A stretch of DNA of 64,000 nt from a virus (IMGVR_UViG_3300050821_007764:25049-89048); one strand, 5' to 3'; positions 29,267-37,289 are shown, counted from the stretch's first letter. Made by a program: numbers and translations. Notes: generated by a model not told the origin, from the letters alone.

Positions 29267-30004
29267 ATGACCAGTCCCATGCTCAGCCAGATGATCGCGG
29301 TACGGAAGGGCCTCAAACTCCGCACCGCCGCCGCCGTGGACGTGATCTACAAGGATCTCCAGAAGGCCGCACTCTACGCAGGCTTGACCCGCACGTACAA
29401 GCCCAAGGCCGAGGACGGCGACAAACTCCCCCCGGAGTACACCAACGTCCAGAAGTCCGTCGAAGCATCCCTGCGTGCAATCGCGGACGAATGGACGAAG
29501 CTCCTTGACGTCGAGCTGACCGTGGACGAAGGCAACACCCACGCACGCGGGCGCGTCATCGTGGACGGCGAGGAACTGTTCAGCGCGCCGCCGACGTTCC
29601 TCCTTACCGTCGAGAAGAAGCTGATCGACGTCCGCACGGCCTTCTCCAAGGTCCCCGTCCTGGACCCGGCCGTCCGCTGGGAGCCGGACACCACCGGAAA
29701 TGCCACGTGGCGCTCCGTCCCGGAAGAGACCACCCGCAGCAAGAAGGTGCTCCGGAACCACGTCAAGGCCGAGGCCACCGAGAAGCACCCGGCCCAGGTG
29801 GAAACGTACAGTGCGGACGAGATCGTCGGCACGTGGGAGCTGACCAAGTTCTCCGGGGCCGTCAGCGCGGACACCCGCAGTCACCTGCTCCAGCGCGTCA
29901 ACACCCTCATCGACGCTGTACGACACGCCATCGAGGAGGCCAACTCCACCCTGGTTGAGCAGCAGCACGTCGGCGAGACGGTCTTCGCCTACCTGCTGGG
30001 GTAA
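29267..30004 (+). CDS. uncharacterised 245-aa protein, candidate partner of the downstream large ncRNA
   Basis: Strong RBS and high-GC codon usage; LSQMIAVRKG, GLTRTYKPKAEDGDKLPPE, ATEKHPAQV, FSGA, IEEANS. Confidence 0.85.
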   Translation: MTSPMLSQMIAVRKGLKLRTAAAVDVIYKDLQKAALYAGLTRTYKPKAEDGDKLPPEYTNVQKSVEASLRAIADEWTKLLDVELTVDEGNTHARGRVIVDGEELFSAPPTFLLTVEKKLIDVRTAFSKVPVLDPAVRWEPDTTGNATWRSVPEETTRSKKVLRNHVKAEATEKHPAQVETYSADEIVGTWELTKFSGAVSADTRSHLLQRVNTLIDAVRHAIEEANSTLVEQQHVGETVFAYLLG

Positions 30005-33130: not shown

Positions 33131-33399
33131 CGAAAGGCTGGACGTCGATCGGCCTGAAAACGGTCGGCGACGACGACGCGCTGTGGACCGCCTCGGAGGC
33201 CGCTGTCCTGCTCGGTCCGCCTGATCTGAGCCCAGACGAGGTGCGGCACCTGATACGGCTCTTCAGCATCGAACCGGCCGGAAAGCGCCGGACGACAGGC
33301 CACGGCATCGCAGGGCGGCATGCGAGGGTGTACCGGGCCAGTGAGCTTATTGAGGCGTACGACAGGCTCTCCAGGGGCGTCGGAAGGGGGATGCAGTGA
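33127..33399 (+). CDS. MerR-like HTH protein
   Basis: WTASEAAVLL...VRHLIR...RVYRASEL. Confidence 0.6.
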   Translation: MTKGWTSIGLKTVGDDDALWTASEAAVLLGPPDLSPDEVRHLIRLFSIEPAGKRRTTGHGIAGRHARVYRASELIEAYDRLSRGVGRGMQ

Positions 33400-33932
33400 G
33401 GGTCACGTTCGACTGGGAGTTCCTGGACGATGACGGTGAGCGGATTCACCCCATCTCCCTGGGAATGGTGCGTGAGGACGGCACCGAGTACTACGCCATC
33501 AACCAGGACATGCCGTTCGGGCCGATCTCCCGGAATGCGTGGCTGATGCAGAACGTCATGCCATCCCTACCGGTTCGTACCGGGCACAACGACCCATGGG
33601 ACCGGGAGCACCCCGATTTCATCCACGTGAAGCCGAAGAACCAGATCCGTCAGGAAGTACTCCATTTCCTGATGCAGACCCCGTCCCCAAGTCTGTGGGC
33701 GTGGTTCGCGGCGTACGACTTCGTACTCTTCGCGCAGTTATTCGGCCGCATGCTGGATATCCCGGTCGGGCTTCCACAACGCACCAACGACATCGCGCAG
33801 GAGTGGGAGAGCCTCGGGTACCCGCGCCTGCCGGAGCAGCCGCACGGGAATCACAACGCTTTGCAGGACGCCCGATTCAACCTCGTTCGGCTGCTTTGGC
33901 TCGATCAGATCGCCAAGGAAGGAAAAGAATGA
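33396..33932 (+). CDS. DEDD 3'-5' exoribonuclease, Rv2179c/RNase AS-like
   Basis: FDWEFLDD..IHPISLGMVREDG; WAWFAAYDFV; HNALQDAR. Confidence 0.85.
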   Translation: MRVTFDWEFLDDDGERIHPISLGMVREDGTEYYAINQDMPFGPISRNAWLMQNVMPSLPVRTGHNDPWDREHPDFIHVKPKNQIRQEVLHFLMQTPSPSLWAWFAAYDFVLFAQLFGRMLDIPVGLPQRTNDIAQEWESLGYPRLPEQPHGNHNALQDARFNLVRLLWLDQIAKEGKE

Positions 33933-34421: not shown

Positions 34422-34862
34422 ATGAGCATCGCCGGTTCCATATCCAAGTTCCTGCACCGCACCAGGACGGACGCTGCTTCCACCGAGGAAGAGCTGAAGA
34501 AGGTCGTCGAAGCCGTCCGGCCCGAGGTCTCCAGCCTCAAGACCCAGGTGATCTCCGCCGTGGGCCTGGACCTCGCCCACGTCTCCACCGACGTGAAGAA
34601 CGCCCTGGAGGTTCTCTCCTACGACCACAAGGCGGACATCGCCGGAGTGGTCACCACGATGGAGACGTCCTTCGCGGACATCTTCAAGCGGTTCGATGAC
34701 ATCAAGGACCAGCTGGAGGCGCTGCGGGCAGACACAGCCAGCAAGACGGCATCCGCCCGTAAGACGGTGGCCAAGACTGCCGCTGCCGCCACGGCTGCGG
34801 CTACAGCTGCTCCGGCCGCTAAGGCTGTTGCAGCACCAGTCAAGGACGCGCCAGGGAAGTAG
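34422..34862 (+). CDS. hypothetical protein with Ala/Lys-rich tail
   Basis: AGGAG RBS. Confidence 0.65.
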   Translation: MSIAGSISKFLHRTRTDAASTEEELKKVVEAVRPEVSSLKTQVISAVGLDLAHVSTDVKNALEVLSYDHKADIAGVVTTMETSFADIFKRFDDIKDQLEALRADTASKTASARKTVAKTAAAATAAATAAPAAKAVAAPVKDAPGK

Positions 34863-34863
34863 C

Positions 34864-34893
34864 TTGTAGACGCACCGTGAGCACGTGTAGTGT
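34864..34893 (+). promoter_or_regulatory. promoter for the Y RNA-Ro60 operon
   Basis: TTGTAG-18-TAGTGT ending about 7 nt before the first Y RNA stem. Confidence 0.55.
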
Positions 34894-34900
34894 CAGAGAC

Positions 34901-35050
34901 GTCGGAAGGGCCGGGGTACAGAATCCGGTTACTTCATTTGAATGATAATCAAAGGTTATGGGTTCGAGTCCCATCGGGTCCACTTGTGGGCCTGTAGCTC
35001 AATTGGCAGAGAAACGTGCCCGGTTTCGCTTTGATATCGTCCCTTCCGTC
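34901..35050 (+). ncRNA. Y RNA 1 (YrlA-like), permuted tRNA with Ile-GAU anticodon hairpin
   Basis: Outer stem CGGAAGGG/CCCTTCCG; GGGGTACAG..CGGTTACTTC..TTGATATC scaffold; TTTGA-ATGATAA-TCAAA, T arm, closed acceptor, D arm. Confidence 0.85.
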
Positions 35051-35062
35051 ACAGACTTCCTC

Positions 35063-35195
35063 TCAGGTGTACAGGTAGCGGTTACTTCCCTCTGCAAAAG
35101 GAGAGACGCGGGTTCGAATCCCGTCCGGCCCTCTACGGGTCGGTTGCGTAGCGGCCTAACGCGCTTAATGTTCCTGCTTCCGCTTTGAAATCTGA
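35063..35195 (+). ncRNA. Y RNA 2 (YrlA-like), permuted tRNA with Cys-GCA anticodon loop
   Basis: GGTGTACAG..CGGTTACTTC..TTGAAATC scaffold; CCT-CTGCAAA-AGG, T arm, CCGGCCC/GGGTCGG, D arm. Confidence 0.85.
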
Positions 35196-35213
35196 CTGGC
35201 ACAACTTCATACA

Positions 35214-35354
35214 CTGCCTGGTGTACAGGAGACGGTTACTTCCCCTTTGGAGGGAGAGGTCGCGGGTTCAAGTCCCGCCTGGCTGGGGAAACCGGCCGGT
35301 AGCTCAGTTGGTTAGAGCGCTCACGTTCCCGTCCCCGCTTTTGAAATCAGGCAG
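35214..35354 (+). ncRNA. Y RNA 3 (YrlA-like), permuted tRNA with Gln-UUG anticodon hairpin
   Basis: CTGCCTG/CAGGCAG outer stem; same scaffold; TTCCC-CTTTGGA-GGGAG, T arm, closed acceptor, D arm. Confidence 0.85.
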
Positions 35355-35357
35355 GTT

Positions 35358-35467
35358 GCAGGAGCCGCTTCCGGTGTACTGCACGCGGATACTTCACCTT
35401 TGTTTCTGGTACAAAATAGTGAGAGTCTTCCCCCCGCGTGTGCTTCGATATCGGAGACGGCTCCTGC
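35358..35467 (+). ncRNA. Y RNA 4, no T/D arms, isolated Gln-CUG anticodon hairpin
   Basis: GCAGGAGCCG/CGGCTCCTGC outer stem; GGTGTAC..CGGATACTTC..TCGATATC; TTTGT-TTCTGGT-ACAAA. Confidence 0.8.
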
Positions 35468-35505
35468 TTGATATCGGCACCCACCGGTGTAGGAAAGGAA
35501 CAGAG

Positions 35506-37245
35506 ATGGCCCGCTACAACATCCAGAAGCCCCCGCGCACCCAGGTCCAGGGCGGCTCCGCATACCCCGCCAAGGGCACCAGCAGCCAGCAGGCCACCGC
35601 CGTCAACGGTGAGGGCCGCACCGCATGGCTGATGGACGAGAAAACCGGGCTCTACCTCGGGGCCACCTCGGCGTTCGCCGGACAGGACACCTTCTACGAG
35701 AAGGGTGCCGAGCGCGACGAACGCCTCATCGCCTTGGCGCACAAGCTCGCCGTCGAGGACTTCGCGTGGACCTACGACTTCCTGGTCTGGCTGCGCTCCG
35801 AGGGCAATATGCGCACCGCCCCGATCATGCTCGCTGTTGAGGTTGTCCGTGCACGCATTGCCGCCAGGGAATACGGCGCTGCCGGGTCCCGTGTACCAGA
35901 GCCGGGATCTGGCCAAGTCGCCATGACCAACCGTCGGCTCATCGATGCCGTCCTCCAGCGCGCGGACGAGCCCGGTGAAATGCTGGCCTACTGCGAGAAC
36001 ATCCACGGACGCCCCACGCCGAAAGCCATCAAGCGCGGTGCCGCTGACGCGGTTGCGCGCCTGTACAACGAGCGGAACTTCCTGCGCTACAACAGCGAGA
36101 CCAAGGCGCTGGGGTTCGGTGCCGTGATCGAGCTCGCGCAGATGGACCGCATTCCCGGCTGGCAGGGCGACCTGTTCCGGTACGCCATCGACATGCAGCA
36201 CGGCAACGCCAAGGAGATCCCGGACAGCCTGACCGCCCTCCGGGCCCGTGACGCGGTCAACAAGATGACGCCCCAGGAACGGCACAACACTGCCCGCCGC
36301 GAGCTGGCAGCACCCGGCTCAACGGTGCTCACGTCCGCGATGGCAGGACAGTGGGAGTGGCTCCACTCGGCACTCGGTGACACGAAGGGCGTCAAGGGCG
36401 CGCTGACCAAGAAAGAGCAGTGGGAGCTCGTTGCCCCGCAGATGGGCATCGGCGCTGTCGTCAAGAACCTGCGCAACCTGGACGAGGCCGGTTTCCGTAC
36501 AGGCGATCCGGTGGTTACGCGTTTCTGCGAGCGTCTCGGCAACGAGCAGCAGATCGCACGCTCCCGCATGTTCCCGTTTCGGTTCTTCACGGCCTACCTG
36601 ATGCTAAACAGCGTCACGTGGTCCGCAGCGCTGGAACAGGCCGCCAACCACTCCCTGGCCAGCATCCCCGACCTGCCCGGCCGCACGCTGGTCCTGGTGG
36701 ACACCTCGGACTCCATGAACAGCAAGGTGTCCAAGGACTCCGTCATGACCTACATGAAGGCCGCCGCGCTGTTCGGCACCGCCTTGAAGATCAAGAGCCC
36801 GGACCGGGTCGATCTCTGGGGCTTCGCCGACGGCCAGTTCCGCGCGGACGCGGGCCACGGGTACAGCCTGCTGCGGTGTGCCGAGGACTTCACCAAGCAG
36901 TCCGGCATTGTCGGCCACGGCACCGCCATGGAGGCCGCCATTCGGGCCACCTACGACAAGCACGACCGGGTGATCATTCTGTCGGACATGCAGGCGTTTC
37001 CCGACGAGTCCACGCTGAGCGGTTGGCCGTACCGGAACTACTACGCCCCCGGCGGAGCCATTGGCGACGTCGCCGCAGCGGTCCCGGTCAAGGTCCCTGT
37101 GTACGGATTCCACCTGGCGGCCGGAAAGACCACGCCGCTCGGAAAGGGCAACCGGCACAGCCTGGGCGGCCTGTCGGACGCATCCTTCAAGCAGATCGGT
37201 CAGCTGGAAAAGCTGGGTGTCGGTTCCTGGCCCTGGCAGTCCTGA
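35506..37245 (+). CDS. rsr: Ro60/Rsr TROVE-domain RNA-binding protein with C-terminal vWA
   Basis: DTFYEKG..RDER; WLRSEGNMRTAP; QRADEPGE; KNLRNLDEAG; SRMFPFRF; TLVLVDTSDSM; DRVIILSDMQ. Confidence 0.95.
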   Translation: MARYNIQKPPRTQVQGGSAYPAKGTSSQQATAVNGEGRTAWLMDEKTGLYLGATSAFAGQDTFYEKGAERDERLIALAHKLAVEDFAWTYDFLVWLRSEGNMRTAPIMLAVEVVRARIAAREYGAAGSRVPEPGSGQVAMTNRRLIDAVLQRADEPGEMLAYCENIHGRPTPKAIKRGAADAVARLYNERNFLRYNSETKALGFGAVIELAQMDRIPGWQGDLFRYAIDMQHGNAKEIPDSLTALRARDAVNKMTPQERHNTARRELAAPGSTVLTSAMAGQWEWLHSALGDTKGVKGALTKKEQWELVAPQMGIGAVVKNLRNLDEAGFRTGDPVVTRFCERLGNEQQIARSRMFPFRFFTAYLMLNSVTWSAALEQAANHSLASIPDLPGRTLVLVDTSDSMNSKVSKDSVMTYMKAAALFGTALKIKSPDRVDLWGFADGQFRADAGHGYSLLRCAEDFTKQSGIVGHGTAMEAAIRATYDKHDRVIILSDMQAFPDESTLSGWPYRNYYAPGGAIGDVAAAVPVKVPVYGFHLAAGKTTPLGKGNRHSLGGLSDASFKQIGQLEKLGVGSWPWQS

Positions 37246-37252
37246 AACGCAA

Positions 37253-37289
37253 ACAAGAGCCCCGCTCCGGAAAGGAGCGGGGCTCTTGT
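37253..37289. terminator. bidirectional hairpin terminator between the converging arms
   Basis: ACAAGAGCCCCGCTCC/GGAGCGGGGCTCTTGT 16-bp stem. Confidence 0.75.

Follow-up and report, generated by a model that had tools for sequence, protein, structure and literature searches.

Bacterial Y RNAs of the YrlA type contain a tRNA-like domain, and the partner and role of this domain have been open since 2014. The question is posed in a new form by a Ro60 operon in a 64,000-nucleotide (nt) stretch of viral DNA (IMGVR_UViG_3300050821_007764; hereafter the window), which comprises bases 25049-89048 of an 89-kb IMG/VR record with a CheckV completeness of 86%. From position 34864 of the window onwards, the plus strand carries a promoter-like element, four tandem Y RNAs (34904-35462), the Ro60 open reading frame (ORF) and a putative hairpin terminator (Table 1). 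What does the tRNA-like domain of these RNAs look like, and which factor might read it? Comparison with relatives showed a YrlA variant whose predicted fold mimics an entire tRNA, including an authentic frame of the anticodon loop.

The ORF 35506-37245 lies directly downstream of the RNAs on the same strand. It matched Pfam TROVE (PF05731; E 8.6e-8, 32.2 bits, cut-off 23) over residues 300-369 only, and PHROG 850 'RNA-binding protein' (E 2e-32) over residues 61-565. The solved Ro60 of a Thermus phage (9KOP/9L5Y) was matched with an E-value of 1.5e-16, in the case of 9KOP over residues 303-498, and residues D399, S401 and S403, which correspond to the MIDAS DxSxS motif of a putative C-terminal vWA domain, were invariant among five relatives (alignment A1). 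Identity was 29-61% to 63 IMG/VR relatives, 36-44% to 80 Actinomycetota genome loci and 32-37% to the 'Ro-like RNA binding protein' of Streptomyces, Gordonia and Arthrobacter phages. The closest relative (61% protein identity) is locus L002; L numbers label the loci of relatives throughout. The closest DNA matches to the stretch came from soil metagenomes, no RNA data set was among the matches listed for 34864-35560, and a megablast of the locus against GenBank phages gave no match. An earlier note, made from the sequence of the window, had described this locus as a Ro60 operon with four YrlA-type Y RNAs, which is confirmed by these data. It had also named a promoter: the TTG and TAGTGT blocks were invariant when the window was aligned with L002, but a sigma-70 consensus scan gave 0 sites, the element at 34864-34893 included, and we therefore call the element promoter-like.

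The four RNAs have GGKGTAC ... TACTTC ... GAWATC in common and carry these motifs on outer stems that differ in sequence, as the earlier note had stated. The 7-nt loops that it listed, ATGATAA at 34942, CTGCAAA at 35092, CTTTGGA at 35245 and TTCTGGT at 35404, were found at exactly these positions. In RNAs 1-3 the hairpin is followed by a V loop of 4-5 nt, a T arm, a 7-bp acceptor closed by a loop of 5-7 nt and a D arm, in agreement with the description of these three as whole permuted tRNA mimics that keep an anticodon-type loop. Compared to the tRNA cloverleaf, the order of the arms is permuted, the acceptor is closed by a loop, and there are no free ends. The comparison with the Rfam YrlA model (RF02553) gave a divided answer: the modules of RNA1 (26.8 bits, 34954-35012), RNA2 (22.9 bits, 35105-35162) and RNA3 (38.3 bits, 35254-35323) were all matched, but all stayed below the gathering score of 69. 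The matches cover only model positions 23-86 of 114, i.e. the V, T, acceptor and D modules; the model has no hairpin between its positions 23 and 30 and misses the class with an anticodon arm. Folds of the single sequences were not informative (z-scores -0.5 to -1.7).

RNA4 is without the tRNA module, as in YrlB-type partners. In its loop, position 2 is U and positions 5-6 are GG, but position 7 is U instead of A, and we consider it a possible anticodon-type loop. The claim that RNA4 retains just the anticodon hairpin holds in so far as a hairpin with a 7-nt loop is present; the L002 orthologue has a 4-nt loop instead and offers no counterpart. In a survey of short module-less Y RNAs, whose motif filter missed RNA4 itself, 7-nt loops were the commonest but not the dominant size (16 of 72 best hairpins), and some of them were anticodon-like, with no clear excess. 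As the earlier note had observed for the window, no Cys or Gln tRNA gene is present there, and none was found in the remainder of the 89-kb record.

Table 1. Coordinates of the features of the Ro60 operon (positions in the window)
Feature	Position	Strand	Remarks
Promoter-like element (putative)	34864-34869; 34888-34893	+	TTGTAG, 18-nt spacer, TAGTGT; directly after upstream ORF stop (34860-34862)
Y RNA 1	34904-35047	+	outer stem GGAAGGG/CCCTTCC; TACTTC 34930-34935
Y RNA 1, anticodon-arm mimic	34937-34953	+	fully local; 5 bp; loop ATGATAA 34942-34948 (GAU)
Y RNA 1, V loop	34954-34957	+	
Y RNA 1, T arm	34958-34974	+	
Y RNA 1, acceptor hairpin	34975-34994	+	7-8 bp; loop 34982-34987
Y RNA 1, D arm	34997-35012	+	
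Y RNA 2	~35062-35197	+	TACTTC 35083-35088
Y RNA 2, anticodon-arm mimic	35089-35103	+	CCT 35089-35091; loop CTGCAAA 35092-35098 (GCA); 3' strand AGGAG 35099-35103
Y RNA 2, V loop	35104-35107	+	
Y RNA 2, T arm	35108-35124	+	
Y RNA 2, acceptor hairpin	35125-35143	+	
Y RNA 2, D arm	35146-35162	+	
Y RNA 2, nt 26-28	35163-35165	+	GCT; C27/T28 predicted to pair with G43/A42
Y RNA 3	~35214-35354	+	TACTTC 35237-35242
Y RNA 3, anticodon-arm mimic	35242-35256	+	CCC 35242-35244; loop CTTTGGA 35245-35251 (UUG); 3' strand GGGAG 35252-35256
Y RNA 3, V loop	35257-35261	+	
Y RNA 3, T arm	35262-35278	+	
Y RNA 3, acceptor hairpin	35279-35299	+	
Y RNA 3, D arm	35302-35318	+	
Y RNA 3, nt 26-28	35319-35321	+	GCT
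Y RNA 4	35363-35462	+	short Y RNA without T/acceptor/D module; TACTTC 35390-35395
Y RNA 4, hairpin	35399-35415	+	TTTGT/ACAAA; 7-nt loop TTCTGGT 35404-35410; inside outer Y stem in the predicted fold
Ro60/Rsr-like gene	35506-37245	+	579 aa; predicted TROVE ring plus putative vWA domain with DxSxS motif
Terminator (probable)	37253-37289	minus, as reported by the scan	16-bp G+C-rich hairpin 3' of the Ro60 stop

Relatives were gathered from 63 viral (IMG/VR) loci, 8 GenBank phage loci and 80 Actinomycetota genome loci. A script anchored on TACTT followed by C or G and on the T arm found 109 units in 70 non-duplicate phage and viral sources (nine duplicate loci, L001, L016-L018, L060, L061, L064, L069 and L073, were dropped). 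A recognisable closed acceptor and D arm were present in 81 units, the other 28 were left out, and removal of two identical duplicates gave 79 unique units. The V-loop length (4 or 5) was picked per unit for maximal pairing, and shuffles were run under the same rule. In an earlier parse of unique units, a perfect 5-bp stem whose end lay 3-6 nt upstream of the T arm enclosed a 7-nt loop in 36 of 75 units, and each other loop length between 3 and 10 nt in only 1-4 units (shuffles: about 2.9 per length). Under the final rule (7-nt loop, three local and two further pairs), the arm was present in 48 of the 79 phage/viral units, from 39 loci, compared to a mean of 2.5 and a maximum of 7 units in 300 shuffles.

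All of these 48 units have U33; A38 is present in 47, a purine at position 37 in 46 and at position 26 in 45, and C32 in 38, and positions 34-36 hold 21 different triplets. Positions 36 and 37 are coupled, with U36 followed by A37 in 29/29 units and G36 by G37 in 10/11; the corresponding values for 175 real phage tRNAs from the same loci are 62/62 and 31/35. The loop of this RNA family thus has the features of a tRNA anticodon loop: 7 nt, Y32, U33, R37, mostly A38 and the 36-37 coupling. The 80 Actinomycetota genome loci contained 68 units, 52 of them of the same design (U33 in 50, A38 in 49, 19 triplets), and the design was also found in Xanthomonas phage Tabio and Microbacterium phage FuzzBuster. 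Conservation of U33 and purine 37 around a variable anticodon, which the earlier note had proposed to look for, is therefore seen in the phage and viral units, and a conserved U33 with varying triplets in the bacterial ones. Furthermore, RNAalifold, applied to 38 full-length relatives independently of our parse, predicted the Y stem in two segments, the hairpin of 5 bp with its 7-nt loop, and also T, acceptor and D arms, and the terminal Y stems covary (10 + 7 predicted pairs with compensatory changes). In place of the stem motif GGKGTAC of the window, relatives carry GGTGCGAAG, GGTGCGCAG or GGTGTGAAG. Some relatives have a tetraloop at the site of the arm (L005 2276, L002 2421), and others drop the arm.

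The stem of the arm appears to be composite. Its inner three pairs are local and covary (30-40: CG 17, GC 16, UA 12, AU 3; 31-39: CG 29, AU 11, UA 7), and its outer two pairs have a choice of partners: the invariant UU of UACUU, or the two bases 3' of position 26, behind the D arm (post-D bases). With the latter as partners, pair 28-42 is UA 20, CG 18, GC 4, AU 1 and UG 1, and pair 27-43 is CG 40, GC 2 and UA 2; the outer pairs are exclusively post-D in 10 units and exclusively local in 4. In a register control, offsets of 0, 2 and 3 gave 1, 17 and 5 of 43, compared to 38 of 43 at the tRNA register. When 51 units were aligned with MAFFT (alignment A2), the local 5-bp stem was 88% paired (score 0.483, with 0 of 500 shuffles as high) and the full long-range 5-bp stem only 57%, its two outer pairs covarying, while the composite structure with T and D arms reached 94.6%, compared to 24-54% when slid. 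The covariation favours the post-D bases as partners in the outer pairs. In RNA2, both post-D pairs form and the local-only model has one mismatch; in RNA3, the long-range helix of the Rfam YrlA match includes the same 27-43 and 28-42 pairs. RNA1 forms both local outer pairs and no post-D pairs, and together with its L002 orthologue it has extra bases and a fully local 5-bp hairpin.

Since the post-D bases pair with positions 43 and 42, the point at which the Y stem enters the anticodon stem would be 28/29. For RNA2, RNA3 and the majority of relatives, the chain is accordingly predicted to exit the tRNA body after nt 28 and to re-enter it at nt 29, and the Y stem to be the third helix of a three-way junction, between the conserved UUACUU linker and a (U)ACGU-like linker. 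The break between D and anticodon arms given in the earlier note is correct for RNA1; in RNA2 and RNA3, where CT at 35164-35165 and 35320-35321 pair with 43/42, the break lies at 28/29 instead. The alternative pairing with post-D bases that could have abolished the loops is partly real, as it accounts for the two outer pairs, but it completes the arm instead of destroying it.

The hairpin has been interpreted differently before. In many YrlAs, Chen 2014 (PMC4201824) noted a 'less-conserved' fourth stem-loop upstream of T, named it V and read it as a variable arm, with a conserved YUAY (here the UUAC of UUACUUC) opening the V region. The solved Salmonella YrlA lacks an anticodon loop, its anticodon stem being a long-range helix (Wang 2018, bioRxiv 10.1101/312249), in agreement with the statement of the earlier note that the described fold has no such loop. 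Applied to the RNAs studied here, this geometry would make the Y stem the equivalent of the anticodon stem, stacked under the D stem, and the hairpin a branch resembling a variable arm, the likeness to an anticodon arm being superficial; that the pairs 27-43 and 28-42 are shared with the Rfam YrlA long-range helix is in line with it. However, the variable slot is already filled by the 4-5-nt V loop, whose last base makes the Levitt pair 15-48 (A-U or G-C in 97 of 100 related units, with U8 in 100 of 100), and nt 28 is set apart from the Y stem by 5-9 unpaired bases that are conserved. In class II variable arms the loops are short and lack the U33/R37/A38 signature, unlike the 7-nt loop found here. 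De-permuted units were called by ARAGORN as 71-75-nt tRNAs with the expected anticodon in 48 of 48 cases, which is a weak test, as 43 of 48 were called in a shuffled-arm control. We regard the variable-arm geometry as quite improbable for these RNAs.

A search of the literature retrieved no paper on an anticodon-type loop or variable triplets of YrlA; the supplementary structures (S1) of Chen 2014 and the 2020 Annual Review (Sim et al.) were outside that search. The supposition that the architecture is undocumented thus holds for the signature and the triplets but not for the hairpin, which is in print as the V arm (Chen 2014). What is new, and widespread, is the anticodon signature with its variable triplet, as a new reading of the known YrlA family.

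Could the array simply consist of tRNA genes? ARAGORN called a 'tRNA-Ile' (GAU) at 34908-34983, which is RNA1, and a 'tRNA-Gln' (UUG) at 35214-35286, which is RNA3, so that these two might be ordinary tRNA genes or the array a set of decayed tandem tRNAs. GenBank annotations of equivalent units are of the same kind: tRNA-Arg(tct) in Gordonia phage VanLee (L009 2204-2275), tRNA-Ser(gct) in Streptomyces phage LuckySocke (L013 2274-2347) and tRNA-Pro(tgg) in Frankenweenie (L015 2194-2284) overlap Y RNA units. In Xanthomonas phage 10KY502B, the match sits under an annotated tRNA-Thr. However, the Rfam tRNA model (RF00005) scored RNAs 1-3 with 26.7, 21.7 and 18.9 bits at a threshold of 29 and with the D arm missing from the alignment; because the scores are below threshold with this arm deleted, both ARAGORN calls are considered miscalls. 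Moreover, the 3' acceptor strand is followed by a 4-7-nt loop and then by the 5' acceptor strand and the D arm, and the units sit on conserved, covarying Y stems beside Ro60 in more than 100 loci. An origin as ordinary or decayed tRNA genes thus deserves practically no credence. Besides those of the window, ARAGORN miscalled Y RNAs of 4 of the 8 GenBank phage loci and of 21 of the 63 viral loci, where there is often no other tRNA within 10 kb; many annotated 'tRNA' genes beside Ro-like genes are Y RNAs, which in some phages are the only 'tRNA'.

The variation of the triplet was compared among relatives. Among 75 related pairs, which are non-independent and were selected on body identity, differences per site amounted to 0.45 in the triplet, 0.05 in the loop flanks, 0.07 in the T arm, 0.12 in the D arm and 0.31-0.34 in the acceptor strands and loop. 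By its rate, the triplet is free or diversifying; the sequence comparison does not separate the two. Near-identical bodies display GUU or GCU, GCU or GCC, and CUU, UCU, UUU or UCC, and UUG-G37 of RNA3 is replaced by GUU-A37 (loop CTGTTAA) in its L002 orthologue, with a compensatory change in the stem. Seven loci have two or three such RNAs whose displayed triplets all differ, as expected by chance with 21 types. The loop of RNA1 was also found on a different stem in Streptomyces phage BRock (L014 2302), and CTGCAAA of RNA2 recurs in class A units of L038 and L072 and in short RNAs of VanLee and L051. In L002, the RNA2 orthologue (2421-2560) has an extra 14 nt and, instead of the 7-nt CTGCAAA, a hairpin TCTGT/ACAGA with a GCAA tetraloop; the arm can therefore be remodelled between close relatives. 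Contigs of soil DNA from four runs were compared with the stretch, and two runs carry relatives at ~90-95% identity. In run X3, three listed substitutions (34942, 34946 and 34947) lie inside the RNA1 loop. The soil-run differences listed include no change in the RNA2 and RNA3 loops; 17 further differences are outside this list, and no conclusion was drawn.

Two ways in which the triplet could be tied to real tRNAs were considered and rejected. By the discriminator-base rules for bacterial tRNA identity, the window modules, with A, U and G, fit Ile, Cys and Gln in 3 of 3 cases, but only 11 of 41 units do so in the family; isoacceptor mimicry was thus discarded as a general rule, and the fit in the window is best read as a coincidence. 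The arms are not copies of the arms of cognate phage tRNAs either, since mean best identity was 8.8/14 to tRNAs with the same anticodon and 12.1/14 to others. Of ~19 displayed triplets compared with the phages' own tRNA sets, 2 coincided with that of a real tRNA lying no more than 10 kb from Ro60, too few to interpret.

One explanation that needs no reader of the triplet is that the arm is a structural relic, kept for a stable fold and for maturation by tRNA enzymes (TruB, Dus, RNase P, the CCA enzyme and position-37 modifiers) while the triplet drifts unread. In the literature, Chen 2014 proposed that the tRNA fold shields Y RNAs from nucleases, and a JBC 2023 review states that the mimicry is believed to stabilise the RNA. 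A mere cap, however, needs neither exactly 7 nt (36 units compared to 1-4 for other lengths), nor an invariant U33 and A38, nor the U36-A37/G36-G37 coupling. Loop size, frozen U33/R37/A38 and coupling argue against such a cap, an argument strengthened by relatives with tetraloops or no arm: the arm is dispensable for the fold, yet the full signature is present in 48/79 phage and 52/68 bacterial units. In addition, A is under-represented at the triplet positions (4, 3 and 5 of 48, compared to 26% A in these segments). We hold the relic to be rather unlikely, and return below to the observations in its favour.

Another explanation is that the loops recruit or titrate enzymes, attracting t6A or m1G37 machinery, Tgt-type enzymes or synthetases, either to Ro60 substrates or as a sponge that reprogrammes host translation. 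U36-A37-A38 and G36-G37 are determinants of position-37 enzymes, and they occur in 29/48 and 10/48 units, respectively. YrlA is Rsr-bound and is handled by TruB, DusA, RNase P and the CCA enzyme, with modification by TruB and DusA in vivo, Y RNAs are described as tethers between Ro60 and an effector, and mascRNA binds GlnRS via its anticodon loop, according to a review. Against the synthetase version stand the missing discriminator and body identity (11/41) and the occurrence of Ser or Leu triplets on class I bodies, as with GCU in 6 units whose V loops have 4-5 nt; in general, no gene for such an enzyme is linked to the module. We judge recruitment to be unlikely.

We tentatively prefer a third explanation, in which the RNAs are baits or competitors for anticodon-directed host factors, nucleases first; taken together with the anatomy it is plausible, but we would not call it probable. 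The transcript of the phage rsr (Ro60) operon would carry four YrlA-type Y RNAs, each with a conserved Ro60-docking stem, and by analogy with the family we infer that they dock on the phage Ro60. The back-to-front tRNA domain of RNAs 1-3 runs from anticodon arm through V loop, T arm and loop-closed acceptor to D arm; in RNA2 and RNA3 the top two pairs of the stem would come from post-D bases, as they do in a normal tRNA, and the lower three with the loop from the strand that enters via the UUACUU linker. With C32, U33, R37 and A38 frozen, the triplet is the fastest-changing part of the RNA and still keeps the U36-A37/G36-G37 rule. Ro60-bound RNAs could in this way display anticodon loops of several specificities (GAU, GCA, UUG) to anticodon-loop readers, the likeliest targets being nucleases of the host that are directed at anticodons, or tRNA-loop enzymes. 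The RNAs would bait these proteins or compete with their substrates, and Ro60 may hold, protect or pass on the RNAs.

Published findings touch on such a role. Cleavage of tRNA anticodon loops induces the Salmonella rsr-yrlBA-rtcBA operon, and YrlA was suggested to be a possible competitive inhibitor of an anticodon nuclease (Hughes 2020). The Ro60-Yrl particle of phage phiLo binds and damps host PNPase, which its authors read as counter-defence (PMC12135203), and Wang 2018 termed the partner of the tRNA-like domain 'an unknown factor'. The baits had been called unchargeable in the earlier note; this may not hold: the YrlA of M. smegmatis is cut by RNase P and receives CCA in vivo. A bolder version takes the triplet as a programmable address: mounted on Ro60, each Y RNA would bait or sense a single host factor that is specific for an anticodon, for instance an anticodon nuclease resembling VapC, PrrC or a colicin in the actinobacterial host. 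An arms race between phages and hosts would then shuffle the triplet while the frame of the loop stays the same, three or four RNAs in one array would give multi-specific protection or alarm, and Ro60 would capture the nicked bait. In an extension of this version, the domain would turn into a chargeable tRNA in two pieces, borne by Ro60. We consider this version rather doubtful.

Several observations weigh against the bait explanation. Neutral drift in an unconstrained loop explains the triplet equally well, its rate of 0.45 being not far above that of the covarying acceptor; triplets with A34, which are unnatural for bacteria, are present (AGG 3, AUU 1); and the RNA body, by its discriminator, does not follow the displayed triplet. 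These three observations at the same time favour the structural relic. The mismatch of the arms with cognate phage tRNAs, mentioned above, also counts here. Furthermore, 31 of the 79 phage units are without an anticodon arm, ~20 of them being canonical YrlA with a long-range stem when classified by eye. Most of the related viral loci have no real tRNA within 10 kb, and protection of phage-borne tRNAs can therefore not be the general role. No conserved nuclease, ligase or toxin gene accompanies the module within 10 kb in 61 loci, and none of 5 actinobacterial genomes checked has RtcB less than 10 kb from rsr. Finally, the direction of the hairpin, anticodon arm or variable arm, is decided by the stacking at the junction, which is not readable from sequence.

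The surroundings of the operon gave some further observations. In L004 (1500-2900) and L005 (1200-2830), whose Ro60 has 44-45% identity, real tRNAs are interleaved with Y RNAs upstream of Ro60 in what is apparently one array, namely Phe, Leu, Asp and His in L004 and Trp, Glu, Ile, Asp, Phe and Met in L005. The window genes that recur within 10 kb of Ro60 encode an Rv2179c-like exoribonuclease (9 of 61 loci) and a DUF7873 protein (5 of 61). In the window, the Rv2179c-like 3'-5' exoribonuclease (33396-33932, plus strand, Pfam E 1.7e-6) lies ~1 kb upstream of the Y RNA array, and the DUF7873 protein (29267-30004, plus strand, Pfam E 1.5e-79) upstream of the second tRNA cluster. An 'exonuclease' also lies immediately upstream of the Y RNAs in FuzzBuster. 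The segment from RNA4 to the Ro60 start codon (35463-35505) holds a 3'-type block, TTGATATC, and after it a 5'-type block, CCGGTGTAGG, which reaches the ribosome-binding site; this resembles the transition into a fifth Y unit in truncated form, or half of a docking site within the leader of Ro60, and L002 is without such a block. The hairpin 3' of Ro60 is probably a terminator for both converging transcription units. In Mycobacterium phage Snenia (L223 1356-1740), the RNAs lie downstream of the Ro-like gene and have a CAGCAA-type handle in place of GGTGNNNAG; one is a canonical YrlA-like module, and another is short and forms a TTTCA/TGAAA hairpin around the 7-nt loop CTGCTAA.

For actinobacteria, the phages of these bacteria and at least some proteobacterial phages, the tRNA-like domain of Y RNAs is thus predicted to be no headless tRNA but to possess a complete anticodon arm whose frame is frozen and whose triplet is free. 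A vague mimicry becomes experimentally testable in this way, also in isolated SEA-PHAGES phages with the same design, and Ro60 particles would be linked to tRNA-directed phage defence and counter-defence.

Among known systems, the most similar is YrlA (RF02553), with representatives in S. Typhimurium, M. smegmatis and mycobacteriophages; it adjoins Ro60 in 254 bacteria and 22 phages (Chen 2014). Alike are the position just upstream of rsr/Ro60 on the same strand with several Y RNAs per locus, a stem of the 5' and 3' ends, here the presumed docking stem, the order of T arm, loop-closed acceptor and D arm, the covarying Levitt pair and the YUAY (here UUAC), and the pairs 27-43 and 28-42 coincide with the start of the long-range 'anticodon stem' of YrlA. 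Unlike in YrlA, the long-range helix is here only 2 bp long and is continued by three local pairs that carry a 7-nt U33/R37/A38 loop; the hairpin of RNA1, with 5 bp, is fully local. The docking motif of YrlA, given as GNCGAAN0-1G in the stem of the 5' and 3' ends (Chen 2014), contains CGAA where the window RNAs have GUGUAC, and docking is presumed here from family membership. Yrn1 of Deinococcus radiodurans is likewise Ro60-bound and has a T arm, and its drawing in Chen 2014 includes a potential 'anticodon arm' whose stem has 5 bp; it differs by a 6-nt loop, another arm order and the lack of a V arm or full D arm, and its description there mentions no variable triplet or U33/R37 signature. Thermus phage phiLo (PMC12135203; 9KOP, 9L5Y) encodes the best solved relative of the protein, a phage Ro60 with the Y-like RNAs Yrl1 and Yrl2 just upstream, but these RNAs are stem-bulge-stem structures with the CGAA motif, and 'anticodon' and 'tRNA-like' occur 0 times in the text of that paper.

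The tRNA-like structure (TLS) of turnip yellow mosaic virus (TYMV), tmRNA with SmpB, and mascRNA are further examples of L-shaped mimicry that engages tRNA-binding proteins, with mimics of the anticodon domain in the TYMV TLS and tmRNA. With their CCA ends free, they work in cis on a genome, at the ribosome or by themselves, whereas the window RNAs have a closed acceptor, a tether in the form of the putative Ro60-docking stem, and an arrangement as an array with different triplets. In the circularly permuted tRNA genes of the red alga Cyanidioschyzon merolae, the 3' half precedes the 5' half and the acceptor strands are joined by a short linker; these tRNAs mature via a circular intermediate into working tRNAs. 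In the RNAs described here, by comparison, the ends form a conserved stem for the presumed docking on Ro60, the chain is broken at 28/29 or 26/27, and there is no sign of religation.

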